Part shown: piece after piece, positions 4,601 to 55,060 of the stretch | Position numbering within the stretch: position 1 is the stretch's first letter | How the letters are laid out: the number at the start of each line of letters is the position of its first letter | IMG/VR virus record: IMGVR_UViG_3300020050_007362 | Span: 11,369 to 75,368 of that record | From: a virus | Lineage: Duplodnaviria > Caudoviricetes | DNA: 64,000 nt | Reading direction: 5' to 3' (one strand) | Made by a program: the position numbers and the translations under genes | The notes under the pieces: model-generated | What the model saw: only the letters and a program-made list of their open reading frames with translations | Databases searched by the model: none | What the model was told of the DNA's origin: nothing

Positions 4601-7600
4601 AAAGCAGGATGTTTAGCTTTTCTATCAGTATTTGGGTTTTTATAACGCGCTTCTGTAAAGGCAGCGTAACTTAATTCCTGTGCTTTTAAGAATTGCTCAA
4701 AGGTTTTAGCATCTTCTAAAGTGTTAAAAGCGGCGTTACCATTAAAAAAGGCTAATGGGTTTACCTTATTAATTGTATGTTGCTCATTAAGCTGATTAGC
4801 AAACTCAATGATTTCATTAGTATATTTGTTATTAAATTTAGCTTGAGTGAAAGCAAGATACCGTTCGCTTTCTATATCGGTAGCCGGCATTTTCTTAACG
4901 CCAGTCCAAGCTTTAGAAGCATCTACGTTAATAATGGTAGAATCTTGAACTACGCCGGTTAGTTCACCATGTTGCGCTTTGGTCAATATGTTATGGGTTA
5001 AAGCACTGACTTTATCACCTGCCAATACCCATTGCGTTTGTAAACCATCTCTTAACCTACGGTACTTCTCATAGCTATAAGCCGCAGGTAGGTATTTTTT
5101 ACAGTTTTCAACAAGTTGTTGTACTGATAAAAAGGCTAGTTTAGGCGAAGCTACTTGGCTAGATAACTTATCAAAGCCTTCTGAGATAATAGCTGACCAT
5201 TCTCTGTACTGCTGTTGGTATTGTGCTGATCCTTCAGTACCAGTGGCAGGAGCCGGACGGCTGTAACGAATATCATCGCTCTTTTCGGAGAACGCACCAA
5301 TATTAGCGGTTGCTGATTTGATTTGATTGGGGTTTTGAACTGCAAAAGCAATCCCAGACTCATCTTCTACATAAATAAGATCATCACCAGTACGCTCAAG
5401 AACGCTGGTAACTCTGTTTAACTTTTCATTATATTTAGTATAGGGTATGTCTCCGAAATGAACGGCTGTTTCTTTAGTGTTAAAGGGTGATCTTGCATTC
5501 AAATAAACCGCTATAGTGTCACCTTCTCCCATAGCAGCCATTATCGACCCAGCTTTTGAATCAGCAAACCATATAAGCCCTGCTGTTCCGCTTCTAAATT
5601 TAGTAAAATCATTTCCTTTTTGTCTAGTGTGATAAACAACAAGCGGTTCGCCATTCTCATCAACCACTTTAGAAGCGTTTTCTGGATCGTTAAGCCAATT
5701 TCCAAACCATTTTACGAACTCAGGTGTCCTCACTTGAGCGTGTTGAACCGCATTAAGGTTTGAAGGTTTGCCATTAGGCGCTAAAAGTTTTCCTTTTTGT
5801 ACACCCTGTGAAGAAGCCATAGCTGGGGTTCCACCAAACACCCACGCTTTATTTAATGTTCTACCGTGGATGGCGCTTTTCAAACTGGATACTAATAGTT
5901 CGTGCATATCAGCATCAGTTAGCGTTCCAGTAATGAAACCTCTAGCTAGGCCACGTTCCATCAGGAAGGCTTTAATTTTAGCAATCAGGCGACGATACCA
6001 TGGCAGGTTAGGGTTATTCTCTCCTAACTTAGCAATGACCTCAGAAATGAACTCCTTGCTGCCTTCATCTATATCAGGATAGAGTTTTTTAACTTGATTC
6101 CAAACACGTTGCGTTTCAGAACCCTCTACTCGTGATTGGTTACGGATTTGATTTTGTAAATCAGCGTAGCCTTTTAAACCCAGCATACGCTCAAGATTAA
6201 AATGCTCACCTAACTCATGTAAGACAACGGCTTTTATTCTATATCTAGCAGTAGATTGCAAATCGATATAAACCTTACCATTAAGGTAAACCGCTTCGGT
6301 AAAGAAACCTTCCGCTGCTTTTCTAGCCGATTCTGGCCAAGAGTCACGGCCTTGAGTTAAGTTAAGAACCTTAGTGTTAATAAGGTTGGCAATGCCAGGG
6401 CCGAACTGATCAATTAATTCGTTTTCAGCTTCTTGGGCATTGGCAAATGTATTTACATTTTTCGCTTCTTGTCTACTAAACTGAGGTTCAGATAAATTAA
6501 TACCTTCTAAAGAATCTAACCATCTTTGCATGGTCTCAGTAGGTAGGTATTGTTCATTAGATAAGAAAAAATTCTTTAAGGCTTTACCTAAACGAGAAAA
6601 AAACTTTTCTACTATGGATACAGGTTTATCAGAGGTGGTTGCCCATCTGGATACTTGATCTGAGAACCACTCTTTTTCTAAACTCCAATATCTATCTAAC
6701 CCCTCACTTGTTTTGCCTTCTAACCCTTTAGTAATTTTACCCATACTACGAGCACGTAAACTTTCAACATGCTCTCTAGCAGTTTTACCTTTTGTAGAAG
6801 CAAGCCATTTAGCGTAGTCTTCTTTTATGGCTTTCCTAGTAGTTTCATCAGCATTAATATAGCTAGTTCTTTCTAGTATATGCCCCATCTCATGCGAGAT
6901 GATTTCTAGCGTTTGAGTAAACTTAGCTTTAGGGCTGTACGCAATAATAAAATCCCCATTAGCTAACATACGCATGTTTCCCCCTTCATCCCCATCTAAA
7001 GCATGAGAAGGTATAGCTGCGTATTGCCCATGAAAACTTGCTGATTTAGCATCGTTGATAGTAGTAAAATAGACACGTTCCTTAATGCCCATTAACTTTT
7101 TCCACCCTTCTATAACACCTTTAATATTTTCAGGTACGTTTTCAGAATAAGCCGTATCTTCCCCGACTTTAAAAGGGCCATTAGGGTTAATTTCATTTAA
7201 CGCTTTATCTGCTTCTAACCATTTATTTTTAGCCTCAACAAGTGTTTTCTTTTCATCAGTGGAAACCATATTTCCTGTATAACTTTCAATATCAACTCTA
7301 GTTCTACCTTCACCTTCTTTAGCCGCAAGAAATAATGGTTTACCACTTAGAACACTGTGCCCTTTAATTAAAGCTATGCCTTCACCCCCTTTTCCTAAAG
7401 ATAGATGTACAACCTCCCCACCCAAATCAGTAGCATGGTCTTGCGCCCATTGAGGGGGGTTTTCTATTTTAGGCTTAACTATTTCTGTTTTCTTTACAGG
7501 TTCAGCTAATTCTCTAGCCGCTGCTTCATCTTCTATTTGCTCAGGTGTGGCTAGGGGTTCTATTTGTTTAGCGTCTGTTAAAGCATCTATAACCGGTTTA

Positions 7601-10600
7601 GTTTCAGTAACAAATTCTTTTATCTCAGCAGGTGTTAATTGTTCTTGCATGTCTTTAATAGACTGCTCAAAATCAACAGCGGTAAGACCTGCACCTAAAA
7701 TATATTCATATTCTTTGGATAAGTCATCTGGTAAAGATTCTAACTGTTTAGTTAGTTCTGCATCAGCCGTTTGCCAATCTGCTTTATCTAACTTAATAAA
7801 ATTAGCATTTACGCTTTTTACAAAACTGAATACTTCAGCTGCTTTTTGATTAGTTTTAGCGGCTTTTGCTAAAGCTCTATAGGATGCACCATCGCTTGAT
7901 GGGTGACTCTTCAAATAGAACATAACCGCACTAAATAGTCTATCTGCTAATTGTGCTTTAGAAAGTCTAGGTGCAATTTCTGTTTTCTTTACAGGTTCAG
8001 CTAATTCTCTAGCGGCTTTTAAAACACCGTTTTGAGCTATTGCCAAACCTTCAGTGTTCTTTGTTTCTGCGTATCTTAATAGAGGTTCTATTAATTGATC
8101 CGGTATACTGGAAGGCCAATCTTTTAAATTATTACGGTTTAATACACCTGCTCTATCTTGGCCTGTTCTGATAACCGCTATAGCGGCATCATAAGGCCCA
8201 GCATTGATAGGCATAATATCTATTTCATTTCTATTAGGAATGAATAGGTAGGTATGGTTGCCATAATCTAAAGCAACTCTAGCATCGTCGTATTCTTGCT
8301 CTGCTTTAGTTGCATCTCTTAAAAAGACAGTTTCTGTTTTCTGTACGGGTTCAGCTCTACCTAAATCTTTAATACCTTCTTCATCAAATAATCCGGCAGT
8401 TGCTGTACCACCAAAGCCTAACATTTCATCTTCAAGCGTATCGAGTTCTCTATCAGCTCGTGCTTTTTGCTCAGCAGCTAAATCAGCAGCCGCTTTTTCA
8501 GCCGCTAATCGTTTAGCTTCTTTTTGCTGTTCGAGTATTTCTTCTTGCGTATAGGTCTTTAATAAAGGCGCACCCGGTGTATAAGGTTTTACTTCTTCTG
8601 TTTCTCTTCCTGCCGCCTCTTCGCCGCCTTCAAAACCGCCAACATCTGTTCCCTCGTCATATCCATCAGTAAATCCCCAAAAGTCATTAAGATCATCGCC
8701 GGTTACTATGTCACCGTAGTTAAAATCGTCTTCTACATATTCAATAGCATCGTCAAAATCTGTGCTATCTATAAGTCCTTCTTCTACAGCGTCGTCATAT
8801 TTTTGTAATTGTCTTGCTTGCTCATCATTGAAATTTTCTTTTTCTTGAATAGCCAATAGGTTTTCATGGCCAGCTGGCGTGTAGTATTCGTTTCCTCTTA
8901 ATGAGTCATATAGCAATTCTGATAAACCATTTTCACCGTCTATATCATAGCCGTATTGATTTAAAGAAGTTGCCATGTCATCCATGGTTAACGCATTAGT
9001 ACCATTATTAAAAATGGCTTGGTAACGCCTTCCTTTATAATCAGAGAAAGCCGATTTAGGTCCGTTAGCGTCCCTAATGCCGCCTAATTTTTTAATAGCG
9101 CCTTGAAGCTCTTCTAATCCAGAGGGTGTTGTGTAAAAAGCCGCTTTTGCTTTTCTTACCTTTTTAGGCTTTATTGGTTTATCCCAAACTTCATTGGTCT
9201 TAGCTTTTAGATCGGCCATTGACATAGCGGTAATAGCGCCAAAGCCACTCCAACCTGAATTATAGTTTCTTAAGTACGCATCTTTAGCCGCATTAATATT
9301 AGGATAGCCAAGCATAACCTTATGCTCATCAAATTTATTAGTCTGTTTACCGTTATCATCAACTACATACTGATCAACTACGTAAGCGTATTTAGTTTTA
9401 TCTTCTTGTTCTTTGGTAAGCCCAACAGGTGTAAATACATCAAGATGATCTTTATCCGCACCCCTTACATTAGGCATACTTCCATAGTTATCTTCTAATT
9501 GTATTTCCCATTTTTCACCATTGGCATCTGTACCGGAGCGAACAGTTCCCGCTGGGTTTTCAATAGCGACATGAATACCTTGGAAATCAGCACCGGTTAA
9601 AGGGTAGGCTTCTTTTGCTTCAATAGCGGCTTTGCTGGGTGTTTGTTGTTGATCAGCTGCTGCTGAGACAGGTGCTTGTTTTGCTTCTGGTGCTTTTTCT
9701 TCTGTTTTATAGCCAACAAATTCTAAAGTGCCATCAGGTAATGTAATTGTTTCTGCTTTTGGCAATTGAACAGGAGTTACTTTAATATCGCTGGTAGCAA
9801 TCCATGATTCTACACCGGAAGCTGATCTTACTCTTACTCTTCCATAGGAAGGTGCAGATACAGCAGTAACTTGCTCGCCGTCTTTAGTTTGTAAAGGTGC
9901 ACCCTCTCTAATTTTATTAGCAAAGGCAACATTTTTTACGTTTTCTTTATCCGTATAAAGTCCGGTAATACGTCTTCTCTCAGCAGATAGCTTTTGGCCA
10001 GCCGCATTTAAACGCTTACCTCGTTCTTGAGAGTCACTGATACTATTTGCATATTCTATTTCAAGATTATGGTTTTCGTTAGCGGCATCCCATTCAGTTC
10101 GTTGCGTCGGTGTTAATCTATCAAGATTAACTTTTACGTTATTAACTATGTTCTGTTCTACAGGCGCTACTTTTTGCTCTTCTTGCCCTTGGTCTTCTTG
10201 CCCTTCTTTATCGATCTGGGTTGTGTCTTTGCCTTGGTCATACGCTGTTAATCCTGTAGTAGCTTCCGCACCCGTTGGAGGAATGACGGTTTCACCTTGG
10301 GCTTCGCCCATTGAAGGAGGTGCCTGTTCAGTAGTACCTGCTCCTGGTGTTGTTGGTTGTGCTGCTGTAGTTGGTGTAGCTGTTTCTTTAAGGCCATTTT
10401 CTGTTGTTTCTTGTTGTATCGTTCTAAGTTGTGATAATCGAAGTGTAATATTGTGTATTAAATCGCCTTCACTGGCTTTTAAATACGGCGCACCTAAATC
10501 TTTTGCTATCGTTCTTAATCTTCCTAAGTTAGCGACAGGTGGTGTCGTTCCGTTTTCTACAGCTTGTCTTTTTTGATCTAATAAATCACTAATAGCAAAA

Positions 10601-37097: not shown

Positions 37098-40031
37098 CTA
37101 TTTTTTACGTTTGGTTATTCCATTTTTAGGATATTCAGTAACCGGTTCAATTGGTTTGGCAAATACTGGTTTGCCTTGCCATTGTCTATCGGCTGCTGCG
37201 CGTTCTGCATTGGCATAGTCTTCTGGTGATACTTCACCGGCGGCTATATTTTGTAACTGTTCTTGGTTAAGACCGGGAACAATAGAGGGTGCATCATAAT
37301 ACTTCTGATGGCCTTCTAACTGTAGCGGAGCTGTACTGGGGTTTAGACCGGGGATATGTTGGTAATCTTTTGGAACTCCAACCCCTATCGAATACTCAGT
37401 TACTGCTGGCGCTTCAGCATTGCTGGTGCCGCTTACATTTCCGTAAAAACCTTGACCTTTAGCTGACATATCATCTCGCATCAGATGGCGTTGAGTCAAA
37501 TCAGGTTGGGTTAAACCAGTATTAGCTATTGCTGGCGCGTAGTTATTAGGAACTACTGTTCCGCTTTGATTAGGTACAATAACTTCTGGTCCTTTCTCCC
37601 CTACAAGATAAGGTTGCCCTTCGTTTACCGGTCCTCCTTTTGCTCTTGCTTCAATCTCCGGTGTTTCTATCCCTGCTTGCAAACCTGATCTGGCAGAAGG
37701 TGGTTGGCTAGGGTGATAGTTAGGCGCTTGTGGCATTACTGCTGGCGGTACCATGCCGGGTTGAGGGGTCACTTCAGATACAATCGGTGCTTTGTTATGA
37801 TCAGAAAAGCCTGAAGACGCTAGAATCTCATCGGATACCGGTGCAATGCCTGGGTTTTGGGCAATGACTCCTGCTGCTTGAGTGGCTTCGTAAACAGCCG
37901 TTACATTAGTGGTTGCTGTTTGAGCAATTAACAAATTAATCTTGGCTTCCATTTCCTTCATTGCCAATGTTAGTTTATCATTCTCCAACTGAATCTTAGC
38001 TTGTGCCACTTCAAGTTTACCTTGCTCAAACTTAGATTTTTCCTCTAACTGTTTTTGAGCCAACTCAATTTTTGGATCAGTTTGTGGGTTAGCTTTCATC
38101 TCTTCTGCTTTGGCAAAATCAAAGAAGCGTTCACCGTTATCATAGCCGGCTGCACCAAATACCTCTTTGGCAATCTCTCTTCCGTTGATAGCCGCTGCTG
38201 CATCCGGTACTAACTGAATAACCGTTGAGATAGCGGTAGAAATCTTTTGGATACGTTGGCTAGGGCTTACAGCGCCAGCACCTACGTTAACCGTTACAGA
38301 GAACTTATGGTCAAAATACTCAGGTAATACTTGTAACAACTTGGCTTTCTTAGAAGCGACAGTGATTGCCGTGATATCGGTTTCATACATCGATTCAAGC
38401 TGAATGATTTGATGTAATACTGTTTCAATCCATGTTTTAGTAATGGTACGTAGTTCCATTTCACGAACACGGTTGCCGGCAGACTGCATCATCTCCATAC
38501 CGCCAACTGTCTCGTTCATTTTACGATTAGAGTTAACCGTACTGCCGGCCATAGAACCTGATAGATCATCCGCTGCCAAGTTGATTCTATCTTCTTCTTG
38601 GTAACTTGAACTGGTGACATCCGCTGTCGCTAAAGGCATTACATGACTATCCAGCGCACCGGGTGCTGAGATACCAATCAGTCCGCCGGGAACATTACGA
38701 CTTAACGCCCGAACATCAACTTGACTGCCTTGACGGTATAAGTATCTTCTGTTTAATACTTGACGAACGTTATCAATTCGTTGGTTCTTGATTTCGTTTA
38801 AAGATTTTTGCAAACCGGCTATTAAAGATACCGCACTGCTTGGGTAAACTTTATCAGTTTCAACTTCAAGCTTACCTGACGCATAATCGCGTTTGCCATT
38901 TGCCCAAGGGATAACCGATGACAGTAATACTGGCTCTGACAACATGAGCATTGTGCCGGCAGTGTAATACAGCCAGTCTTCACCGTTGTAACGTACTATG
39001 TTACGGTGTATCCAAATCATTTTGAAATCATCAACCGATTCCATCTGATAAGACTTAGGATCAAGATGGTTCTGTCCGGCTCTGGCTCTTCGGGTGGTAT
39101 CAAAATCTCCCCTTTCTCCAGCTGCCATTAACATATTCTTACCGATATCCTTCCAAGAAGGTTCACCGTTCTTACTGTCTTTACCTTCTCTGATCTTAGT
39201 TTCAACATCCACTAAGAACATCGGGATCATTTCAATCAGGTATGGTGATGAGTTAATGGGGTCTAACCAATCAGATGCCGGTGAAATGCGTAGATTTTCA
39301 GCAGGTACAATGCGGACGTTAGGTTTATCAACTATCGTTTCAGTTGTATACAGCTCAACCATTTCGCCGGTTAATGGGTCAATTTCTTGACCGATTACGG
39401 TTTCCTTTTCCCGATACTCCCAAGATTGATGGGAAACGACCATGCCTAATACGGCTACTTCTTGAATACCGCCTAACAATATTTGATACCAAGGAATAGA
39501 ATTAGCTAAACGGTAATTAACCAACTCCTTCATTAAGCTAGCCGCTTCGTTTTGTTGTTGATCATCCTGATCTTCAGCTTCTATGGCTACGACATCCGAG
39601 CTGGCAAAAAAGGCACTGGTGGCCGCCGCTTGGATATCTCGGACTAGCGTTCTGGTCTTTGGCCAAAAGTAACTTGAGCGATGCTTATTAGCATCCGATA
39701 AGATAGGTGAGCCTTCCGCGTGTTCAGAATGGTAATGGCGTAAGTTCCTTGACCATTCAGCACGTAGGTTAATCTTCATCCACGCATCGGAGGCTTCAAA
39801 CGCATTCCTAGCCATGCGTAGCCAATCAGCTGATTCAGTGCTAGCACCTTCTGCCGATTGCGTATCTTGTTGAGCAGATTTAGGTTGATCAGTTTGGCTA
39901 GTATCACGCGCACGTTGTTGAAGTTCAGCTTCAACCGAATTTACAATGGGCGCCGTTACTGAAGATGAAGGTCTCCATTGTCCCCCTTCGAGACTTGCTT
40001 GCGGACCTGATGTGTCACTGATAATAGCCAT
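37098..40031 (-). CDS. portal protein with a long C-terminal extension
   Basis: 977 aa between TerL and the scaffold; PKTRTLVR, VPAENLRISP and EIKNQRIDNV motifs of podovirus-type portals. Confidence 0.8.
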   Translation of the reverse strand: MAIISDTSGPQASLEGGQWRPSSSVTAPIVNSVEAELQQRARDTSQTDQPKSAQQDTQSAEGASTESADWLRMARNAFEASDAWMKINLRAEWSRNLRHYHSEHAEGSPILSDANKHRSSYFWPKTRTLVRDIQAAATSAFFASSDVVAIEAEDQDDQQQNEAASLMKELVNYRLANSIPWYQILLGGIQEVAVLGMVVSHQSWEYREKETVIGQEIDPLTGEMVELYTTETIVDKPNVRIVPAENLRISPASDWLDPINSSPYLIEMIPMFLVDVETKIREGKDSKNGEPSWKDIGKNMLMAAGERGDFDTTRRARAGQNHLDPKSYQMESVDDFKMIWIHRNIVRYNGEDWLYYTAGTMLMLSEPVLLSSVIPWANGKRDYASGKLEVETDKVYPSSAVSLIAGLQKSLNEIKNQRIDNVRQVLNRRYLYRQGSQVDVRALSRNVPGGLIGISAPGALDSHVMPLATADVTSSSYQEEDRINLAADDLSGSMAGSTVNSNRKMNETVGGMEMMQSAGNRVREMELRTITKTWIETVLHQIIQLESMYETDITAITVASKKAKLLQVLPEYFDHKFSVTVNVGAGAVSPSQRIQKISTAISTVIQLVPDAAAAINGREIAKEVFGAAGYDNGERFFDFAKAEEMKANPQTDPKIELAQKQLEEKSKFEQGKLEVAQAKIQLENDKLTLAMKEMEAKINLLIAQTATTNVTAVYEATQAAGVIAQNPGIAPVSDEILASSGFSDHNKAPIVSEVTPQPGMVPPAVMPQAPNYHPSQPPSARSGLQAGIETPEIEARAKGGPVNEGQPYLVGEKGPEVIVPNQSGTVVPNNYAPAIANTGLTQPDLTQRHLMRDDMSAKGQGFYGNVSGTSNAEAPAVTEYSIGVGVPKDYQHIPGLNPSTAPLQLEGHQKYYDAPSIVPGLNQEQLQNIAAGEVSPEDYANAERAAADRQWQGKPVFAKPIEPVTEYPKNGITKRKK

Positions 40032-46345: not shown

Positions 46346-46485
46346 AGTCCAAAAATCAATGTTTTTTATTTTTAATAAAAAATTTAAATTGCTTTACTGA
46401 ACCTGTTGCGGAATAGCCCCTTGGTAAGGATGCGGCATGGTTTTAACAAGCAACTAATAGCTTTATGGGGGATGGGGGAGTGGGG

Positions 46486-46639
46486 TTAGCTATGAGGGAT
46501 TAGCTATGAGGGATTAGCTATGAGGGATTAGCTATGAGGGATTAGCTATGAGGGATTAGCTATCGGCTAAAAGATATGAGGGATTAGCTATGAGGGATTA
46601 GCTATCGGCTAAAAGCTATGAGGGATTAGCTATCGGCTA
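46486..46639. repeat. tandem array of 11 in-phase 14-bp units (TTAGCTATGAGGGA / TTAGCTATCGGCTA)
   Basis: Read directly from the sequence; no spacers. Confidence 0.95.
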
Positions 46640-46736
46640 ATAGAGAATTTTTTTTATAAAATTTTTTTCTAAATTTTTGACGAAGCTGTATATATGCGAG
46701 GCATGGGGTGGTTACTATTTGCCGTCACCCGAAAGA

Positions 46737-46748: not shown

Positions 46749-47028
46749 CTTGGGAATGGTAACTTGTTTTTAAAAAATCAAAAATGGCGTGGCGTAGCCA
46801 CTCCTTACAGCTCTTGACCTTATCAAAATAAAACCGAGCGAAGCGAGAACCTACAGGAGCGCAGCGATCTAGCATTTTTTGCACCCCTACAGAGCAACGA
46901 CAACAAGCCGCCGAAGCCCTGCAAATAGGCGTTAAATAAACATTTATATTATTAACACCCTTATTTTATACCAGTTTGGACGATATAACGCCCAGAAAAC
47001 GTTAAAAAACTAGGTAAACAAAGCAACG

Positions 47029-47331
47029 TTAAACAACCCCTGCATAGTATCCACGCCGCCGGTGGTTTCTTATGTTATTAAATGGCACCGCGACCAGAGC
47101 GCCGCCGGTATACGCCATCATGAAAACCGAAAGCGCCGCCGGTGAAGCGACGAAAGACCAAGCCGCCGACCAAACACCCGCCGCCGTTTTTGTCTCAATC
47201 CTGCACGCCGCAAAACCGGCGTTATCTATTCGACGAGCCACGCGCAACAAATCCGCCTCAGTGGAAGCCGTCACAATGTATGTTTTTTGCCTCCAAAAAT
47301 GCTCACTACGCCACGAAATAGAATTAGCCAT
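47029..47331 (-). CDS. possible hypothetical protein
   Basis: 100-aa ORF with protein-like composition but no clear SD. Confidence 0.3.
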   Translation of the reverse strand: MANSISWRSEHFWRQKTYIVTASTEADLLRVARRIDNAGFAACRIETKTAAGVWSAAWSFVASPAALSVFMMAYTGGALVAVPFNNIRNHRRRGYYAGVV

Positions 47332-47562
47332 GCAAAGACATTACCATAAAAAAATCAGCTCACCCGCGAGAATTGCCAAAATATCTGCAAGGACACATTA
47401 TAATATAACATATCAGCTTTTAGCCAATAGCCACCAGAGCCCACCAAACCGGAACAGGTATAAATTAAGCAAAGCCCTATAAACAAAAGACTTAAGCAAC
47501 CCGCCCACCGTAACAAATAACTAAAAAATAGATACTATTTAAAAAGAAAATCTAATTTTTAG

Positions 47563-47597
47563 ATGTTATAATATAACATTGTTGTTATATTATAACA
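47563..47597. promoter_or_regulatory. two tandem palindromes TGTTATAWTATAACA overlapping an extended -10
   Basis: 47564-47578 and 47583-47597; TG-T-TATAAT at 47564-47572; partial third copy near 47398-47415. Confidence 0.65.
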
Positions 47598-47696
47598 TAT
47601 CAAAAAACCACCAGCGACCAGACCAAACCCAAACCGCCGAACATCTAAAAGATACAAGCCCACCGCCGCCGCTGTCAAATGCTACAGAAGCCAAAC

Positions 47697-47802
47697 CGAT
47701 CCCGAAGCGATCCCGAAGCGATCCCGAAACAATCCCGAAGCGATCCCGAAGCGATCCCGAAGCGATCCCGAAACAATCCCGAAGCGATCCCGAAGCGATC
47801 CC
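47697..47802. repeat. tandem array of 11-bp units CGATCCCGAAG (9 full plus a partial) with a 44-bp higher-order period
   Basis: The variant pair CGATCCCGAAA/CAATCCCGAAG recurs at 47719 and 47763. Confidence 0.95.
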
Positions 47803-48139
47803 ACCGCCCCTGATCCCTTAGCATTAACCATGCCAAAAAACAGCTCAAAAACACCCTAAAAACACCCTAAAAACACCGCAACGAGTGCCGGCCAAAACGT
47901 AAAAAACTAATTTATTTTGATTTGGTAAGAGCGCCGAGAAGCGCCGAGTTATAACCTAACCTATTGATTTATATAGCTTTTCTTACATAAAGGCATAAAT
48001 AACAAATAAACGTTAAAAAAACTATATACACCCTTTATTAATTGACGTTATAATTTAACCAGTATTTTAATTTAATGTTTTAGTTTTACCCCGCCCCGCC
48101 TAACCGGCGACGGCATCACCCAACCGAAGAGGAACGACC

Positions 48140-48943
48140 ATGGCCACAACCGAAACAATGAACCCAAGCAATACAAGCAAGCTTGACGGCTCAGAGCTTG
48201 CCGAATATTTAGCCGCAAGATTCCCAACACCAACACCAGCAACCCAACCAACCACCACCGAAAAGGCCGCAACCATGAACGCACCAGCAACCGTTAAAAC
48301 TTTGACTATTGAACAATTAATAAACAGAGCCGGACACATTCCCGCCGAGCTGATCCGCTCAACCGTAGCCCAGTTTGGCGACTGGCTTTACTTTCAAGAA
48401 AGCGCCGCGAACATCAGCGACCACGGCGCCGCCGGTGGTTTTACTGGCTTTTCTTATTATCATGACACCCTTGCATTTTTTGACGCTAACAGAGCATCAA
48501 TTTTAAAAATGGCCGCAGAAATGGCCACCGATTGCGGGTACAAATCAAGCTTTGAAATGATGGCCGCTTTTAATTGTTTTGCCGGCCTGACTGATCAAGA
48601 AATATTTAACGCCCTGATTGATCCGGAAGCGGAAGAAAGCACCACCGTTAAAAACGGCCTCGCATGGTTTGCACTCGAAGAAGTAGCACGCGCCGTTTAC
48701 GACTACCAAAACGACGACGAAGCAGAGGAAGACGACGCCGGCGAATGGGAACCAGAAGAAGAACAAGAAAGCCCAATCAACCAATTATGTGAAAGCTGGC
48801 TAAACGGTAATATTGCATGGTGTATAGAAGAAGTAAAAACACATGGTTATACTGTTCAAGCTATACGCGAAGTTTTAATGGAAGAAAAAGGCGCCGACTT
48901 TGAAGCCGCCACCAGAGCCGCCGAACGTATGAAAGGCTATTAA
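48140..48943 (+). CDS. early hypothetical protein (HGAAGGFTGFSYYHDT family)
   Basis: 267 aa; AACCGAAGAGG SD; TATAAT at 48049-48054 upstream. Confidence 0.75.
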   Translation: MATTETMNPSNTSKLDGSELAEYLAARFPTPTPATQPTTTEKAATMNAPATVKTLTIEQLINRAGHIPAELIRSTVAQFGDWLYFQESAANISDHGAAGGFTGFSYYHDTLAFFDANRASILKMAAEMATDCGYKSSFEMMAAFNCFAGLTDQEIFNALIDPEAEESTTVKNGLAWFALEEVARAVYDYQNDDEAEEDDAGEWEPEEEQESPINQLCESWLNGNIAWCIEEVKTHGYTVQAIREVLMEEKGADFEAATRAAERMKGY

Positions 48944-49015
48944 ACCAGAACCAGAACCAGCAACCACGGCCAAGGACGGCCACAACCTAAACCAACCAAC
49001 CGCAGAGGCTACACA

Positions 49016-49642
49016 ATGAACAAATTAAACGCCCTATTTATGGAAGCGCAAGAAATAGCACACGAAGCGCAAGCCAGAAAAACCTTAAACGAACGCGCAA
49101 CACCCAGCGCCGCCGACGTATTAAAAAATTCTATTGATGCAATGTTAAAAGACCGCACAGAGCGCGAAAAGTTAGCAATGGAAAAAGCGCAAGCATTCAC
49201 CGCCGCCCAATCATTAGACGATTTGAGATTGCAATTTTTAGCCGAAACCTACAACGACTTAATGTCTTTAACTATGGCCGAACTTTTAGAGATTGAACCA
49301 CCAGCCGCACCACCAGCGCCGCCCGTTATTGAAACATGGAACACAGGCAACCTATACAGCGAACACGGCCAACGCATAGCGGCGACAAGATTAACCGGCG
49401 GAAAATATGCCTTTTTAGATTTAGATAGAGGCCTCAGCGGGATTTTAACAGAAAACAACAAACCGGAAAGCCTAAGCGCCGCGCATTATGTAGGCGAACA
49501 GTACAGAGCCGGAAACTATACAGACGGTTTATTTATTTATAATCGCCCTTACGCCGAGGGGAGAGAACTTGAAGAACTGTTAAAAGCCGCCGCCATGACT
49601 GCAACAAGTTTAAAAACCGAGTTGAGAGGCCGAAAAAAATGA
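49016..49642 (+). CDS. early hypothetical protein (WNTGNLYSEHGQRI family)
   Basis: 208 aa; GAGG SD. Confidence 0.7.
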   Translation: MNKLNALFMEAQEIAHEAQARKTLNERATPSAADVLKNSIDAMLKDRTEREKLAMEKAQAFTAAQSLDDLRLQFLAETYNDLMSLTMAELLEIEPPAAPPAPPVIETWNTGNLYSEHGQRIAATRLTGGKYAFLDLDRGLSGILTENNKPESLSAAHYVGEQYRAGNYTDGLFIYNRPYAEGRELEELLKAAAMTATSLKTELRGRKK

Positions 49643-49809
49643 AAGGAAAAAGCTTTATTTTATCCGGTATCACTGGCTATATTGATCAATATGATTTTAT
49701 AACATGGCATACTATAGGCGCACACCTTAAAAGTTTAGCAGATTGCCCCCTAAAAAGAGCCGCCACGACCGCAAAAGAAAAAAGATACACCGAACACCGC
49801 CCCAAGTAA
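49639..49809 (+). CDS. small hypothetical protein, not in the ORF track
   Basis: 56 aa MKGKSFILSG...; ATGA overlap with the upstream stop. Confidence 0.5.
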   Translation: MKGKSFILSGITGYIDQYDFITWHTIGAHLKSLADCPLKRAATTAKEKRYTEHRPK

Positions 49810-49902
49810 TAAACGCGCCAAGGACGGCGCACAGTTTACCCTTTAGCATTCTATCCAGTGCTAAACGTTAAACTTTAACCAACCAACCGAAAAGGCTACA
49901 AC

Positions 49903-50115
49903 ATGAAAAACGCAATTATTAACATCGCCGCCGCCCTTGCTTTTTTTAGCGCTGGGTATTTTATCGCCGCCAATATGCCAACCCCTAAAGACGTCGTGAA
50001 GCTTGAGCACACTAAGAGCGGCCTTTTTATTTTGGATCAGGGCAGAATTTACACCGTTTCCGAATTGGTCACAACGGCGGATACTTATCAAAAAGTAGAA
50101 CGCTTACACCCATAA
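49903..50115 (+). CDS. small membrane-anchored or exported protein
   Basis: Hydrophobic N-terminus IINIAAALAFFSAGYFIAA. Confidence 0.6.
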   Translation: MKNAIINIAAALAFFSAGYFIAANMPTPKDVVKLEHTKSGLFILDQGRIYTVSELVTTADTYQKVERLHP

Positions 50116-50164
50116 ACGCAACCACCGGCCAAGGACGGCCACAACCTAAACCAGAGGGCAGACC

Positions 50165-50401
50165 ATGACACCAGCAACCGCACCAGCAACCGCAAAGCCT
50201 ACAACCAAAGCGCCACGCATTAATAAATTTTTGTATCTTTACGTTTTACAAGGTTTTTACGGCCAAGGCTGGGAAGACCTAACCGCCAGCGAAAACCGCG
50301 CCGAAGTACGCGACAATTTGAAAGATTACCGCGACAACGAACGCGGAGCCTACAGGATTATAAAAAGAACGGAAGCAAACCCCGAACACATAACCAACTA
50401 A
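50165..50401 (+). CDS. early hypothetical protein
   Basis: YVLQGFYGQGWEDLT motif; GAGGG SD. Confidence 0.7.
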   Translation: MTPATAPATAKPTTKAPRINKFLYLYVLQGFYGQGWEDLTASENRAEVRDNLKDYRDNERGAYRIIKRTEANPEHITN

Positions 50402-50416
50402 ACCAAAGGGCAGACC

Positions 50417-50614
50417 ATGAAAATTAAACTAACCAACCAGCGCACCGGACGCGCTCAAATTTACCACGTAAGTTATTTATTAAAAATATGTTTATTGATG
50501 GCCGGAGGCGGACACGAACCCGCCCAAGTTAGAAGAGCAGAAAACTTTAAAAAAGAAGTATTAAGAGATAATTTTTTAATGGTGCGAAATTGCACAATAG
50601 AAGTATTAATTTAA
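50417..50614 (+). CDS. early hypothetical protein
   Basis: 65 aa; AAGGG SD with the shared CAGACCATG context. Confidence 0.6.
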   Translation: MKIKLTNQRTGRAQIYHVSYLLKICLLMAGGGHEPAQVRRAENFKKEVLRDNFLMVRNCTIEVLI

Positions 50615-50643
50615 ACCAAACCATAAACCGAAGAGGGCAGACC

Positions 50644-51390
50644 ATGAAAGCACAACTAAACACACCAGCAAGCCGCCGCCTGAAAGCCTACAAAGCCAGC
50701 GCCGCAAAGTTAACAGAGAGCTATAAAAAGAACCATAACAGCGATTATGTGACAACTTGGCAAAAACAACGCTATCCAAAACCGGACGTATTAAGCCGGC
50801 CATACTTGACGCGCTCAACCGATAAACAAAAATATTTTATCGATTCCCTAGACAGTTTCCCCTGTAAAAAATGGATTGACGCCGAGAAAACCGGCGCCCG
50901 CAATATATCATCATGGTATGCGGACAATTACCAAAACGAGCTTATTACGCCCGCCGTGGTTTTTATTCGCAACCCCAAAGCATTAAACGACGACGACCGC
51001 GACAACGCCGGCGTACACATTCAATTTATGCCGGCAATCTATTGGAGCGACTGCGACAGCGCGACAGTTTACGCCGATTTATACGATTGTATGAACCAAG
51101 CCGCACACGCCGCCAACCGTTACGCCGAACGCATAGCCGAAGAGGGCAGAGAAGAGGACGCAAAGTATAGAGCAGAGGAAGACATCAGGACGCACCGCGA
51201 AATGATCCACGAACTAAACCGCGAAGCCTTGCCCCTGATAGCAGAGTTAAAAGCACATCCAGAGGGCTACGCGGAACCAATATGCAAAGCGATAAAAAAC
51301 ACCCTCAACGACATAATGTACCAACGTAAAAAAGCTTTTCAAAATATCGAAAAGTTAGAAGATAATTATTGGAACGCTATCAGCTACTAA
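50644..51390 (+). CDS. early hypothetical protein
   Basis: Start revised to 50644 after AACCGAAGAGG. Confidence 0.7.
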   Translation: MKAQLNTPASRRLKAYKASAAKLTESYKKNHNSDYVTTWQKQRYPKPDVLSRPYLTRSTDKQKYFIDSLDSFPCKKWIDAEKTGARNISSWYADNYQNELITPAVVFIRNPKALNDDDRDNAGVHIQFMPAIYWSDCDSATVYADLYDCMNQAAHAANRYAERIAEEGREEDAKYRAEEDIRTHREMIHELNREALPLIAELKAHPEGYAEPICKAIKNTLNDIMYQRKKAFQNIEKLEDNYWNAISY

Positions 51391-51443
51391 AGCCTACAAC
51401 CACGGCCACGGACGGCCACAACTCAAACCGAAGAGGAAAAACC

Positions 51444-51659
51444 ATGTTAAACGGATGCTATTATTTAAACAACACCGGAAGCCGCTGGGTAGTCTATACC
51501 AACGGCAAAAAAGAAAAAGTAACACTAGAAACAAAGAGCGGCGAACTGATCACCAGAACCGCAATATTTTATGAAAGCTTTGGCAATTTTGGCCTAGTCT
51601 GCATCAGCTACAAGGGCAAGAAAATAAAAGTATTCCCTGATTCATTACTTGACGATTAA
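51444..51659 (+). CDS. early hypothetical protein
   Basis: Start revised to 51444 after AACCGAAGAGG. Confidence 0.7.
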   Translation: MLNGCYYLNNTGSRWVVYTNGKKEKVTLETKSGELITRTAIFYESFGNFGLVCISYKGKKIKVFPDSLLDD

Positions 51660-51668
51660 GGCGGAACC

Positions 51669-51965
51669 ATGAACGCACCAGAACCAGCAGAACCAACAAC
51701 CCTTAAAATCTTAAGCATTGACGCATGGGCAGATACAGAGCCAAAAAGCTGGAACTGGAACCAATGGTACAACGCCGGCGAGATATCAGAAGAGGCATTG
51801 ACATGGACACCAAGAAAATTATTAAAATACTTTAGGGGTGCTGGATTGTTAAGCGCCACAAGCGCCGGAAAATGCGCAATAGAAGACGACCAGTATAATA
51901 TTGTGATTGTTGACAAAGCAAACCGCCGCCCCCTGTATGCTATCGAATACGGTAGCCATTACTAA
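51669..51965 (+). CDS. early hypothetical protein (SIDAWAD...WNWNQWY family)
   Basis: 98-aa ORF. Confidence 0.7.
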   Translation: MNAPEPAEPTTLKILSIDAWADTEPKSWNWNQWYNAGEISEEALTWTPRKLLKYFRGAGLLSATSAGKCAIEDDQYNIVIVDKANRRPLYAIEYGSHY

Positions 51966-51985
51966 ACCACAACCAAGAGAAAATT

Positions 51986-52141
51986 ATGTTTACAGATTAT
52001 TATAAAGGCTGTTACATCCACGGATATTTTAACCATCCAGCCGTAAGAGTATCTTTTTGCCATGGTTACGGAACTACACCCTACAAGACCATGAAAGCCG
52101 CTAAACGCGCAATATCGATATTCGTTAAGAACGGCGGATAA
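51986..52141 (+). CDS. small hypothetical protein, not in the ORF track
   Basis: 51 aa MFTDYYKGCYIHGYFNHP...; followed by a hairpin copy. Confidence 0.55.
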   Translation: MFTDYYKGCYIHGYFNHPAVRVSFCHGYGTTPYKTMKAAKRAISIFVKNGG

Positions 52142-52193
52142 ACCCACAATCCTAGCGCCAAGGACGGCCACAACTTAAAACCGGAGTAATACC

Positions 52194-52355
52194 ATGGAAA
52201 AATACCTTATAGCGTTGCCAGTATTTAAAGGCGGGACAGGCTATAACCATCAAACAATATTGGTCAGCGCTACCAATAAAAGCGATGCTATAGCTATAGC
52301 AAGGCATTTAAAACCTGATTGTAATATAGGTGATGTCAAACAAGTAAACTATTAG
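52194..52355 (+). CDS. small hypothetical protein, not in the ORF track
   Basis: 53 aa MEKYLIALPVF...; GGAG SD; followed by a hairpin copy. Confidence 0.6.
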   Translation: MEKYLIALPVFKGGTGYNHQTILVSATNKSDAIAIARHLKPDCNIGDVKQVNY

Positions 52356-52473
52356 AATAAGCCCACAACCCTAGCGCCAAGGACGGCGCAAGCTTATCAG
52401 TTAGCATTTTACCAAGTGCTAACCGCTAAACTTAATTAACCAGAACCCAATCATAAACCGAAGAGGACAGACC

Positions 52474-52692
52474 ATGACAACACCAGAGCGCCCTTATTTT
52501 TGTTACTACGTTAAAAATAACGTTTTGTATTTTAGGCACGAAGACGGACGGAACGGAGGCGAACCCCTGAACCTGAAGCAAGAAACAAAAGAGCAAGCAG
52601 TACAACGCTTGACGGCTCAACTGGGATTAATTAACCCGATCATGGAAGACTTAACAACCACACCAGCAACCACCGAAAAGGATACTATCTAA
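52474..52692 (+). CDS. early hypothetical protein
   Basis: 72 aa; AACCGAAGAGG SD. Confidence 0.65.
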   Translation: MTTPERPYFCYYVKNNVLYFRHEDGRNGGEPLNLKQETKEQAVQRLTAQLGLINPIMEDLTTTPATTEKDTI

Positions 52693-53108
52693 TGGCACAA
52701 GAAAAATTAATTGCAACTATCCCATCATATAACAACCAAAAAGATAACGCTAAAAACCTCGGAGGCAATAAAGAAACGGTAGACCGCTATCTATCTATTG
52801 CTAAACTAAAAACAGCGCCTGACGGCAATTTTATGACCGTTATTGATGCACGTTTTTACATGGGCAGAGCTTCAAGCGCCAGCGTAGTTTATTGCTCAGT
52901 TTGGATTAATTGCTATGGCTACACCACGAGCGGCCACGGCTCAGCAGGTGGTTATGGTTACGACAAAATAAGCGCCGCACTAGGCGACGCATTAGAAAGC
53001 GCCGGCGTAGTATTAAACCGATCAATAAACGGCTCAGGACAGACCAGAGAAGCACTCGAAGCAATCACCGAAGCCCTAGGCTATAAAGATTTTACCGTGA
53101 TCAATTAA
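52692..53108 (+). CDS. early hypothetical protein (GSAGGYGYDK family)
   Basis: 138 aa, coupled to the upstream gene. Confidence 0.7.
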   Translation: MAQEKLIATIPSYNNQKDNAKNLGGNKETVDRYLSIAKLKTAPDGNFMTVIDARFYMGRASSASVVYCSVWINCYGYTTSGHGSAGGYGYDKISAALGDALESAGVVLNRSINGSGQTREALEAITEALGYKDFTVIN

Positions 53109-53321
53109 CCCCACAACCCCAGCGCCAAGGACGGCGCACCCTTTACCGGTAAGTTTACCCTTTAGTATTGTACGCAGTGCTAAACGTTAAACTTCAACCC
53201 AGTAAAAAAACTCAACCCAGTCAAATAAAAGGGTTTGAAAACGTAAAAAATCGTGATAGCATTTGCTACAACATTTTATTAATGCCGACAACTAAAGGCC
53301 GACAACCGAAGAGGAAAACAT

Positions 53322-53693
53322 ATGTGTACCAAAGACAGCTCAATAATTAACAAATTGTTTCAGCTAGAATTTAATACTGAACTTGATTTAGCGGACATTA
53401 CCCATTTCATTAACCAACGAATGAATGTGCTGGATGTATTCCCAGAGTTAACATCAGAAGAAGTTACCTTATTAACTTTAGAAATGGGGATAGAACCCAT
53501 GCAGATGTTTGACGCTCAGGAAATGTTAACTGCAATTCAGGATGACCTTGAACCAATAACTATTTGCCAACAGCTGATCGAAGAAGGCGCTATAGATGCC
53601 CTTGCTTTATTCACCGTAGAAGAAATGCTTTTCAATATCGACGATCAACAATTAATAGATGAAGCCAACGACCGTGGTTTATCACTGGGCTAA
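53322..53693 (+). CDS. acidic hypothetical protein
   Basis: 123 aa, strongly acidic; AACCGAAGAGG SD. Confidence 0.65.
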   Translation: MCTKDSSIINKLFQLEFNTELDLADITHFINQRMNVLDVFPELTSEEVTLLTLEMGIEPMQMFDAQEMLTAIQDDLEPITICQQLIEEGAIDALALFTVEEMLFNIDDQQLIDEANDRGLSLG

Positions 53694-53719
53694 TGCCGAC
53701 AACCGAAGAGGATATTAAG

Positions 53720-54283
53720 ATGAATAAGGTTTGCAATAAATGCAATGAAGAAAAACCTTTAGGTTTATTTGGAAAACATAAAAGGTGTTCCGATGGGCAT
53801 GGAGGAACATGTAAAAAGTGTTTATCAATTTATAACAAAAAGTATTATTTAAACAACGAAGAAAAAATAAAGGAAAGGAGCAACCTTAACTACGCTGAAA
53901 ATATTGAAAGATGCAAAGAAAAAAACCACATGTATTATCAAAAAAACAAGGATAAATGTATAGAAATATCAAAAAAATGGCAGGAGAACAACCCTGAAAA
54001 ATGTAAAGAGTATAGAAAAGCAAAAAATATAAATAGACTTGGAAAATACAAGGATATACAAAAATTGTGGGTTATAAATAATATAGAAGCAGTTAAAGAA
54101 AACAGAAAGACTAGGAAAAAATTTAACTCTGAAAATTTAACGGATAGTTATGTTAGAGGGATGCTGCAAAAAAGAACACAAATGTCAGGCGGAGATTTAC
54201 CACAAGAACTTGTAGAACTTAAGAGAATACAACTATTAATTACACGTGAAATAAGGAATAAAAATGTCATTAACAATTACTGA
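53720..54283 (+). CDS. Zn-finger basic protein (CxxC...CxxC N-terminus as in phage HNH-associated proteins; no HNH core seen)
   Basis: CNKCNEEK...TCKKC; start revised to 53720. Confidence 0.6.
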   Translation: MNKVCNKCNEEKPLGLFGKHKRCSDGHGGTCKKCLSIYNKKYYLNNEEKIKERSNLNYAENIERCKEKNHMYYQKNKDKCIEISKKWQENNPEKCKEYRKAKNINRLGKYKDIQKLWVINNIEAVKENRKTRKKFNSENLTDSYVRGMLQKRTQMSGGDLPQELVELKRIQLLITREIRNKNVINNY

Positions 54284-54455: not shown

Positions 54456-54490
54456 AGAAGTTAATGCCGACAACCGAAGAGGATACACAA

Positions 54491-55060
54491 ATGAAAGTAG
54501 GATACGCACGAGTCAGCACCAATGATCAAGATACACAACTGCAATTAGATGCGCTCAGTGCCGCAGGATGTGAAATTATCTATCAAGAAAAGATGTCCGG
54601 CGCCAAAACAGACAGGCCAGAGCTTAAAAACTGCCTAAAATCCCTAAGAAAAGAGGATACACTGGTTGTTTGGAAATTAGATAGGTTAGGACGCAGCCTT
54701 CAACATTTGCTAGTCGTAGTAAAGGATTTAGAGAATGCCGACATCGGCTTTCAATCCTTAACGGAAAGCATCGACACCACATCCAACACCGGTAAATTGA
54801 TCTTCCATATCTTTGCCAGTCTAGCGGAGTTTGAACGCGGCCTGATCACTGAACGAGTAAATGCTGGATTGGCTGCTGCCCGTAAGAAGGGAACAAAGTT
54901 TGGTCGCCCTGAATCATTAAATAAGAAACAAAAAGCCATGGCCTTAGCTATGTATTACGGCGGAACCTCAAAGATTGAAATAGCCAACCACTTTGAAGTC
55001 ACCCGGCAAACAATCTATGCCCTGATTAAAAAGGATATCCCCTTGGATGAGTTGGCTTAA
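54491..55060 (+). CDS. serine recombinase (resolvase/invertase family) with a C-terminal HTH
   Basis: MKVGYARVST, DTLVVWKLDRLGRS, AEFERGLITERVNAGLAAAR..G..FGRP and EIANHFEVTRQTIY; start revised to 54491. Confidence 0.95.
   Translation: MKVGYARVSTNDQDTQLQLDALSAAGCEIIYQEKMSGAKTDRPELKNCLKSLRKEDTLVVWKLDRLGRSLQHLLVVVKDLENADIGFQSLTESIDTTSNTGKLIFHIFASLAEFERGLITERVNAGLAAARKKGTKFGRPESLNKKQKAMALAMYYGGTSKIEIANHFEVTRQTIYALIKKDIPLDELA

Follow-up and report, generated by a model that had tools for sequence, protein, structure and literature searches.

A tailed phage known from IMG/VR record IMGVR_UViG_3300020050_007362 carries, within a block of small early genes, seven copies of a short intergenic hairpin whose loop matches the recognition sequence of the bacterial regulatory protein CsrA/RsmA. 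Every copy displays C-A-N-G-G-A-Y-G as a hexaloop on a G+C stem of 3-5 bp. We estimate at roughly 0.55 the probability that these hairpins are sites for the CsrA/RsmA protein of the host, arranged like the leader of the glgC gene of Escherichia coli. The record is a linear sequence of 75,368 bp (84% complete according to CheckV); its bases 11369-75368, a stretch of 64,000 nucleotides (nt), constitute the window analyzed here, to which positions refer unless another genome is named. The hairpins are found between 48968 and 53137, all on the + (coding) strand and all in intergenic DNA:

H1, 48968..48981, + strand: GGCC-AAGGAC-GGCC; covariance model E value 5e-07.
H2, 49815..49830, + strand: GCGCC-AAGGAC-GGCGC; starts 5 nt past a stop codon, with a larger hairpin next to it on the 3′ side.
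H3, 50127..50140, + strand: GGCC-AAGGAC-GGCC; ends 24 nt before the ATG at 50165.
H4, 51404..51417, + strand: GGCC-ACGGAC-GGCC; ends 26 nt before the ATG at 51444.
H5, 52155..52169, + strand: GCGCC-AAGGAC-GGCC; a hybrid with a left arm of the GCGCC class, a right arm of the GGCC class and only 3 pairs.
H6, 52374..52389, + strand: GCGCC-AAGGAC-GGCGC; followed by a larger hairpin.
H7, 53122..53137, + strand: GCGCC-AAGGAC-GGCGC; followed by a larger hairpin.

A stop codon precedes the start of each copy by 5-24 nt, and the flanks are C/A-rich. H1 starts 24 nt past the stop of the gene at 48140-48943 and ends 34 nt ahead of the ATG at 49016; together with H3, H4 and H5 it forms a group whose members end 24-34 nt before the next ATG. 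The Shine-Dalgarno sequence downstream from H4 (GAGGAA) contains a second GGA. H2, H6 and H7, which have the full GCGCC-type stem, are followed by a larger interrupted hairpin and then by a spacer of 73-185 nt. RNA folding returned the hairpin, with an open hexaloop holding the GGA, as the minimum-energy structure in all seven spacers, and the C/A-rich flanks are predicted to be unstructured. The fold of the H5 hybrid is weak (-4.6 kcal/mol).

A pattern search allowing up to 3 mismatches gave 8 matches against 1.77 expected, a number reached in none of 100 shuffles, and a covariance model built from the alignment recovered these seven copies and nothing else in the window. Across all 75,368 bp of the genome, there is no other A[AC]GGAC loop with complementary arms of at least 3 pairs. 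The CANGGAYG motif by itself occurs 15 times in the window (6.9 expected), and seven of these occurrences, all on the + strand, fall within this 4.2 kb.

An initial annotation, made from the sequence alone, had described seven intergenic elements with C/A-rich flanks, each shortly after a stop codon, having two classes of stem plus one hybrid and the loop AAGGAC in six copies and ACGGAC in one. All of this was confirmed at each of the seven positions. The annotation was also right in denying that the elements are intrinsic terminators, an identity that we reject as well: there is no U tract, no terminator-like site was found on the + strand at any copy, and the 3′ flanks are A/C-rich. Its statement that the two arms covary stands in part. 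Within this genome, there are just two stem classes, which differ by an exchange of G-C for C-G at pair 4 and by one additional pair, and the variation does not represent many independent events. Across other phages, the stem does vary around a constant loop (see below).

The properties of CsrA/RsmA targets are well documented. The RsmA/RsmF consensus is CANGGAYG presented in a stem-loop, where N is any base, GGA is invariant and Y is C or U (bioRxiv 10.1101/315341), and the high-affinity target of RsmE is an ANGGAX hexaloop set directly on a stem (PMC4005645). CsrA ligands obtained by in vitro selection (SELEX) are mostly hexaloop hairpins with no more than 4 contiguous pairs; the CsrA dimer can bridge a pair of sites separated by 10-63 nt, the optimal distance being near 18 nt; and in glgC the dimer is tethered by a high-affinity hairpin located immediately 5′ of the Shine-Dalgarno sequence and thereby occludes the ribosome site (PMC7652899). 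The published consensus is present in all seven copies described here and in 75 of 75 aligned copies, and the stems, with their 3-5 pairs, are short like those of the selected ligands. Judged by its sequence, the phage element fits these features of motif, loop and stem, and its spacing is compatible with bridging.

In the set of 75 aligned copies, the C, A, G, G, A and G of CANGGAYG are invariant, N is free and the sixth loop position is C or T. In unrelated phages the constant loop is carried by stems as dissimilar as CCGC/GCGG, TGCCC/GGGCA, TACCC/GGGTA, ACCGCC/GGCGGT, CAGTGGCC/GGCCACTG and AGCC/GGCT. Pair 3 is paired in every copy (G-C in 70, C-G in 4, A-U in 1), and pair 4 is C-G in 37, G-C in 27, A-U in 2, U-A in 1 and U-G in 1, counts that are inflated because the entire stem was fixed in two of the collection scans. 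Covariation scored 0.213, compared to 0.05 for shuffles (none of 500 reached 0.213) and to at most 0.07 for slid partners. A few stems maintain their pairing through G-U only on the sense strand; since the flanks are C/A-rich, the count of G-U versus A-C combinations is uninformative as evidence for RNA. For 82 copies selected on their context, the median distance from the end of the stem to the ATG is 20 nt, and the GGA of the loop lies a median of 18 nt before the next GGA, with 91% of the distances within 10-63 nt, a figure to be read in the light of the fact that Shine-Dalgarno sequences contain GGA anyway.

The element is not confined to this phage. Exact-pattern scans of IMG/VR yielded approximately 90 copies in a constant context (stop codon, C/A-rich run, stem, A-N-G-G-A-Y loop, stem, short spacer, Shine-Dalgarno sequence, ATG), along with many chance matches in G+C-rich coding DNA. 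The carrier contigs span 0.37-0.67 G+C. Several harbor arrays while having little or no homology to the phage studied here, a dUTPase being the only match: one (L055) has 6 copies in 4.7 kb, and four others (L096, L072, L177 and L231) have 3-5 copies each. Among named phages, Escherichia phage ECML-606-1 has two copies in context, GCGCC-AAGGAC-GGCGC and CCGC-AGGGAT-GCGG, and Pseudomonas putida phage KoPa-5 has GCGCC-ACGGAC-GGCGC in context, with the same match in four sister phages. An intergenic match in Enterobacter phage phiT5282EW is known as a match alone. No protein was found in common between the phage analyzed here and ECML-606-1, or the 20-kb stretch of KoPa-5 that was fetched. Copies in full context were also found in bacterial genomes, as parts of prophages: two each in Thiocapsa and Contendobacter, and others in Halomonas, Methylomicrobium and one metagenome-assembled genome of the Pseudomonadota. 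Every prophage host with a name at class level belongs to the Gammaproteobacteria, and CsrA is present in three of the five prophage host genomes tested. BLAST matches in Ralstonia and Brevundimonas phages, from which the context is missing, and a match between convergent genes of an Alteromonas phage were not counted. A scan of bacterial genomes with the GGCC stem was swamped by chance coding matches.

The scans also drew attention to a bacterial sequence of a different kind. The 16-nt hairpin GCGCC-AAGGAC-GGCGC occurs, identical, in a conserved non-coding stretch of three Aeromonadales genomes: a metagenome-assembled genome of Oceanisphaera (L346:430-560) and two Tolumonas sequences (L375:7266-7456 and L378:903-1093, both on the - strand). 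The stretch contains approximately 8 GGA motifs in 130 nt and, next to the first hairpin, a second ANGGAU hexaloop hairpin, UAC-AUGGAU-GUA, showing a compensatory change. No conserved open reading frame and no Rfam match were found in it. By its sequence, it looks like an unannotated sponge RNA of the Csr/Rsm system and is best regarded as a candidate.

Further evidence on the phage element came from a close relative, IMGVR_UViG_3300020048_000076 (89,711 bp, with direct terminal repeats and 100% complete), which is colinear with the window and 87-94% identical to it over the hairpin region. The relative has eight hairpin copies (2959-7673, - strand), 3-7.7 kb from one genome end; its hairpin block is transcribed towards that end. 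Orthologous cores of 14-16 nt differ only at loop position 2, the N of the consensus, in surrounding DNA that is about 10% diverged: H3 reads AAGGAC in the window and ACGGAC in the relative, and H4 reads ACGGAC in the window and ATGGAC in the relative. One CAGGGACG occurrence in the relative has G at N (a sequence match alone). Thus A, C and T, and probably G too, occur at this position in the relative.

The two genomes further differ by three single genes, with the junctions inside hairpin modules. Two of the extra genes belong to the relative: one lies between two GGCC copies at the place of H1 of the window, and the other between two GCGCC copies at the place of H7. The third extra gene belongs to the window (52194-52355) and lies between H5, at the left junction, and H6, at the right junction, in the place where the relative has a single GCGCC copy. 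H5 and that single copy are identical through base 3 of the right arm, beyond which H5 has a GGCC-type flank, and this switch from a GCGCC copy to a GGCC-type flank accounts for its hybrid form. Since three cassette junctions fall inside them, the hairpin modules, 25-33 nt long, are, on the alignment of these sequences, recombination points for the gain or loss of single-gene cassettes; the comparison covers two genomes.

The arrangement suggests a mechanism. On the polycistronic early mRNA, the hairpins would present the CANGGAYG hexaloop, closed by a C-G pair, to CsrA/RsmA. At H1, H3, H4 and H5, a CsrA dimer held by the hairpin could bridge to the Shine-Dalgarno sequence and block the ribosome, as in glgC, and translation from the corresponding start codons would track the cellular level of free CsrA. 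The three GCGCC copies situated far from a start codon might act as extra tethers or as titrating sites. Repression, stabilization and titration are all possible as the direction of the effect. The most likely binder is the CsrA/RsmA protein of the host, because no csrA gene is detectable in this genome or in the complete relative and because no protein is shared between this phage and the unrelated carriers compared with it, ECML-606-1 and the 20-kb stretch of KoPa-5; csrA is not detectable in ECML-606-1 either. E. coli and Pseudomonas have CsrA.

Compared to the known operators of CsrA, RsmA and RsmE, such as E. coli glgC and Pseudomonas fluorescens hcnA, the phage elements are identical in core sequence, in having a hexaloop on a short stem and in the C-G pair that closes the loop, and share with them the location of the hairpin just upstream of a Shine-Dalgarno sequence, typically with a second GGA some 18 nt downstream. 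They differ in lying between the cistrons of the early polycistronic mRNA of a lytic-type phage, immediately after stop codons and seven times over, with three copies far from any ribosome site; protein binding to the phage elements is a prediction. Other phages engage the same host pathway by supplying the protein. CsrA homologues are encoded by Vibrio podophages, Pseudomonas F116-like phages and Escherichia phage PTXU04 (PMC7366521, PMC8450108, PMC11879866), and phage csrA genes have been proposed in the literature to suppress CsrA-repressed immunity. Whereas such phages bring the protein, the phage studied here brings predicted binding sites and no csrA. The named phages closest to it in portal protein (31.6% identity) are Vibrio phages such as 431E45.1 and D279, and these encode CsrA. 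We noted the csrA gene at L528:2628-2801 in 431E45.1 and in about 90 other records of the phage collection, including Pseudomonas F116-like phages and PTXU04.

Several observations weigh against assigning the hairpins to CsrA/RsmA. Only four of the seven downstream Shine-Dalgarno regions contain a GGA, and three copies are too far (73-185 nt) from the following start codon to occlude a ribosome site. A Vibrio phage relative that carries csrA has no hairpin array, as judged from the lack of any match to the covariance model. The AAGGA of the loop resembles a Shine-Dalgarno sequence. Besides the inflated counts of the 75-copy set, the covariation signal was modest in the one scan whose pattern constrained the inner two pairs alone and left the outer ones free: among 19 copies with C/A-rich upstream flanks, 68% were paired at position 3 and 58% at position 4, against 16-37% in slid controls. 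This free-stem scan gives real but modest support for covariation. Finally, titration of CsrA is expected to derepress CRISPR-Cas, which would be of no help to a phage (PMC8450108). This last argument makes a sponge function doubtful, and for that reason a role in sensing or coupling is ranked above it, both roles being speculation. The known sponge RNAs (CsrB, CsrC, RsmY, RsmZ and RsmV) resemble the phage transcript in having several GGA hairpins per molecule (seven here; four CANGGAYG sites in RsmV). They differ from it in being short and non-coding with sites tens of nt apart, whereas the phage sites are separated by 220-1280 nt, with genes between them, in a coding RNA lacking any Rfam match.

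The loop of the element is also relevant to the possibility, unlikely in our view, that some other conserved factor recognizes the hairpin. This could be the 30S ribosomal subunit, with AAGGA acting as a Shine-Dalgarno-like standby site or enhancer, or some RNA-binding protein of the host or the phage. AAGGA is complementary to the 3′ end of 16S rRNA; the constant position of the hairpin, a median of 20 nt upstream of the start codon amid flanks predicted to be unstructured, would suit such a function, and the early genes of unassigned function could include a binder. However, loop position 2 varies (A, C or T, and G in other phage contigs) while the A at position 1 does not, and position 6 is C or T, never the G of a Shine-Dalgarno sequence. 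Freedom at position 2 next to an invariant position 1 breaks up contiguous pairing with the anti-Shine-Dalgarno sequence. An invariant first A, a free second base and an invariant GGA are thus hard to explain by pairing to 16S rRNA; they are exactly the pattern of CsrA recognition, as predicted by the structures of RsmE-RNA complexes. Against a binder of phage origin stands the absence of any protein shared between this phage and the unrelated carriers compared, ECML-606-1 and part of KoPa-5.

The initial annotation had listed a protein-bound RNA hairpin and cassette recombination sites among its options, and both fit the evidence. Alternatively, the hairpins might have no partner in trans. 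They might be modules that stabilize or insulate mRNA, with the shuffling of early-gene cassettes by homologous recombination as their main consequence. The three cassette junctions relative to the 90%-identical genome, all inside 25-33-nt modules, and the hybrid arms of H5 speak for this idea, and the PeSL elements behave in this way in phages RB49 and phi1 (PMC2839356). PeSL cassettes of T4-type phages are likewise repeated stem-loop modules that flank non-essential early genes and allow recombination to add or remove single genes; they consist of a sigma-70 promoter and a terminator stem-loop and measure approximately 70 bp (PMC2839356, PMC4122927). The modules described here differ in that they have no promoter-like or terminator-like match, no promoter component having been found beside the hairpins, and in that their stem is of 4-5 bp and the loop is the conserved part. 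Moreover, recombination requires only sequence identity. It leaves unexplained why an invariant loop should sit on differing stems in dissimilar phages of 0.37-0.67 G+C, and why change between orthologues should be confined to N. We consider that this explanation has a rather slim chance of being the right one.

That the hairpins are signals for RNA processing or antitermination, be it endonuclease sites or nut sites of the boxB type, appears very improbable. The sites do lie between the cistrons of a long operon, and three of them adjoin larger hairpins of about 16 pairs, possible substrates of RNase III. However, an RNase III site of the T7 early type is an irregular duplex of about 20 bp, for which stems of 3-5 pairs, mostly 4-5 bp, are far too short, and the analogy to T7 drawn in the initial annotation was rejected. 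The lambda boxB analogy met the same fate. The loop of boxB is a GNRA-like pentaloop, boxA accompanies it, and a genome typically has two such sites; here the loop is a hexaloop, ANGGAY, the carrier phages are of very different types, and nothing resembling boxA was seen in the C/A-run flanks, where no explicit boxA search was made. A scan of the region against Rfam at permissive thresholds gave no family match.

We attach scarcely any weight to DNA hairpins, that is, promoters of the N4 type for a virion RNA polymerase (the third analogy of the initial annotation) or single-strand recombination sites for a phage recombinase: the genome does encode a virion-type giant protein of 3539 amino acids and a serine recombinase, and the cassettes are bounded by hairpins, but the giant protein is a polyvalent protein (domains InPase, ART-PolyVal and LPD39) to which no RNA polymerase could be matched in Pfam or in solved structures, the loops of N4 promoters have 3 nt instead of 6, the copies are without exception on the coding strand and keep a fixed distance to ribosome sites in phages differing in gene content, and the few stems that pair through G-U only on the sense strand argue weakly in the same direction.

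The genome surrounding the array is that of a tailed phage, with an SU10-type portal protein encoded at 37098-40031 on the - strand. From a 2.3-kb non-coding stretch containing two tandem arrays, an arm of virion genes runs leftward and a block of small genes rightward. The arrays are found at 46482-46640 and 47697-47802 (also 47836-47877), separated by about 1 kb of non-coding DNA, with the divergent virion and early arms outside; their units are the 14-bp GGGATTAGCTATGA, in approximately 11 copies, and the 11-bp CGATCCCGAAG, in approximately 10. This region can be aligned in the relative. The remaining features near the hairpins are the following:

48025..48054, + strand: best match to a sigma-70-like promoter ahead of the gene that opens the block; a consensus match only.
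48140..53108, + strand: hairpin-punctuated block of about 14 small genes, function unassigned.
49833..49874, + strand: larger interrupted hairpin after H2, a TTAGCA...TGCTAA dyad with an outer extension; not a U-tract terminator.
52400-52423 and 53142-53206, + strand: similar larger hairpins after H6 and H7, respectively; no U tract.

The spacers with larger hairpins fold at z scores of -3.1 to -4.6, and none of 200 shuffles folds as well. These hairpins have approximately 16 pairs, the pairing of one arm being kept through U-G wobble, and may represent a processing site or a unit boundary. The only family matches in the early block are to DUF7222 and to PHROG families of unknown function, and a homology search with one early protein returned solely the one close relative. 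Five early genes have in common a ribosome-site block, AGRGGNNNNACCATG (48128, 50153, 50632, 51432 and 52462), for which 0.04 matches are expected. The gene at 50417-50614, missing from the relative, has similar ribosome-site repeats, instead of hairpins, at its borders. The sequence AACGTWAAA is found 14 times in the window (3.06 expected); 8 of the 14 matches are on the + strand in the non-coding region and early block (46998-53248), two of them just 3′ of larger hairpins, and the sequence may be a transcription signal. Immediately downstream from the hairpin block are genes for an endonuclease VII-like protein (53693-54283) and for the serine recombinase, which is of the DNA-invertase type (54464-55060; PHROG 125, E value 1e-74). 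There are no tRNA genes in the window, no close DNA relative of this phage among named phages, and no relatives of the portal protein in bacterial genomes.

CsrA/RsmA is a master post-transcriptional regulator in many bacteria and controls CRISPR-Cas (PMC8450108); Gac/Rsm signaling governs its activity and affects susceptibility to phages (PMC8450108, PMC9992862). The role of phage-encoded CsrA proteins is only beginning to be tested (PMC11879866). In the literature searched, we found no description of CsrA-type hairpin arrays as recurrent cis-elements of phage early operons. The suggestion of the initial annotation that the hairpins form an undescribed cis-element system needs to be amended. 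A genuine family of coding-strand cis-elements does exist, but its motif is not a new one, since all copies match the textbook CsrA/RsmA site, and far from being peculiar to this phage it is widespread in unrelated phages.

Taken together, the sequences suggest that phages probably plug early gene expression into the Csr/Rsm system of the host. Only tentatively would we go further and propose, as a generalization that we hold to be doubtful, that lytic phages of Gammaproteobacteria widely use perfect CsrA hairpins to wire their early accessory genes, possibly genes for host takeover or counter-defense, to the Csr/Rsm state of the cell. If this were so, then, with free CsrA repressing host immunity such as CRISPR-Cas, phage genes would be released when the defenses are released, providing a built-in sensor of the defense state; alternatively, the early RNA could titrate CsrA. 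The modules would be portable, "plug-and-play" leaders, through which newly acquired cassettes join the regulon at once. The presence of the element in cultured phages of E. coli and P. putida makes the idea directly testable. If the sites are functional, they would constitute a widespread route by which phages read or disturb the physiological and defense state of their hosts, and would explain the exchange of orphan early genes as ready-regulated cassettes.

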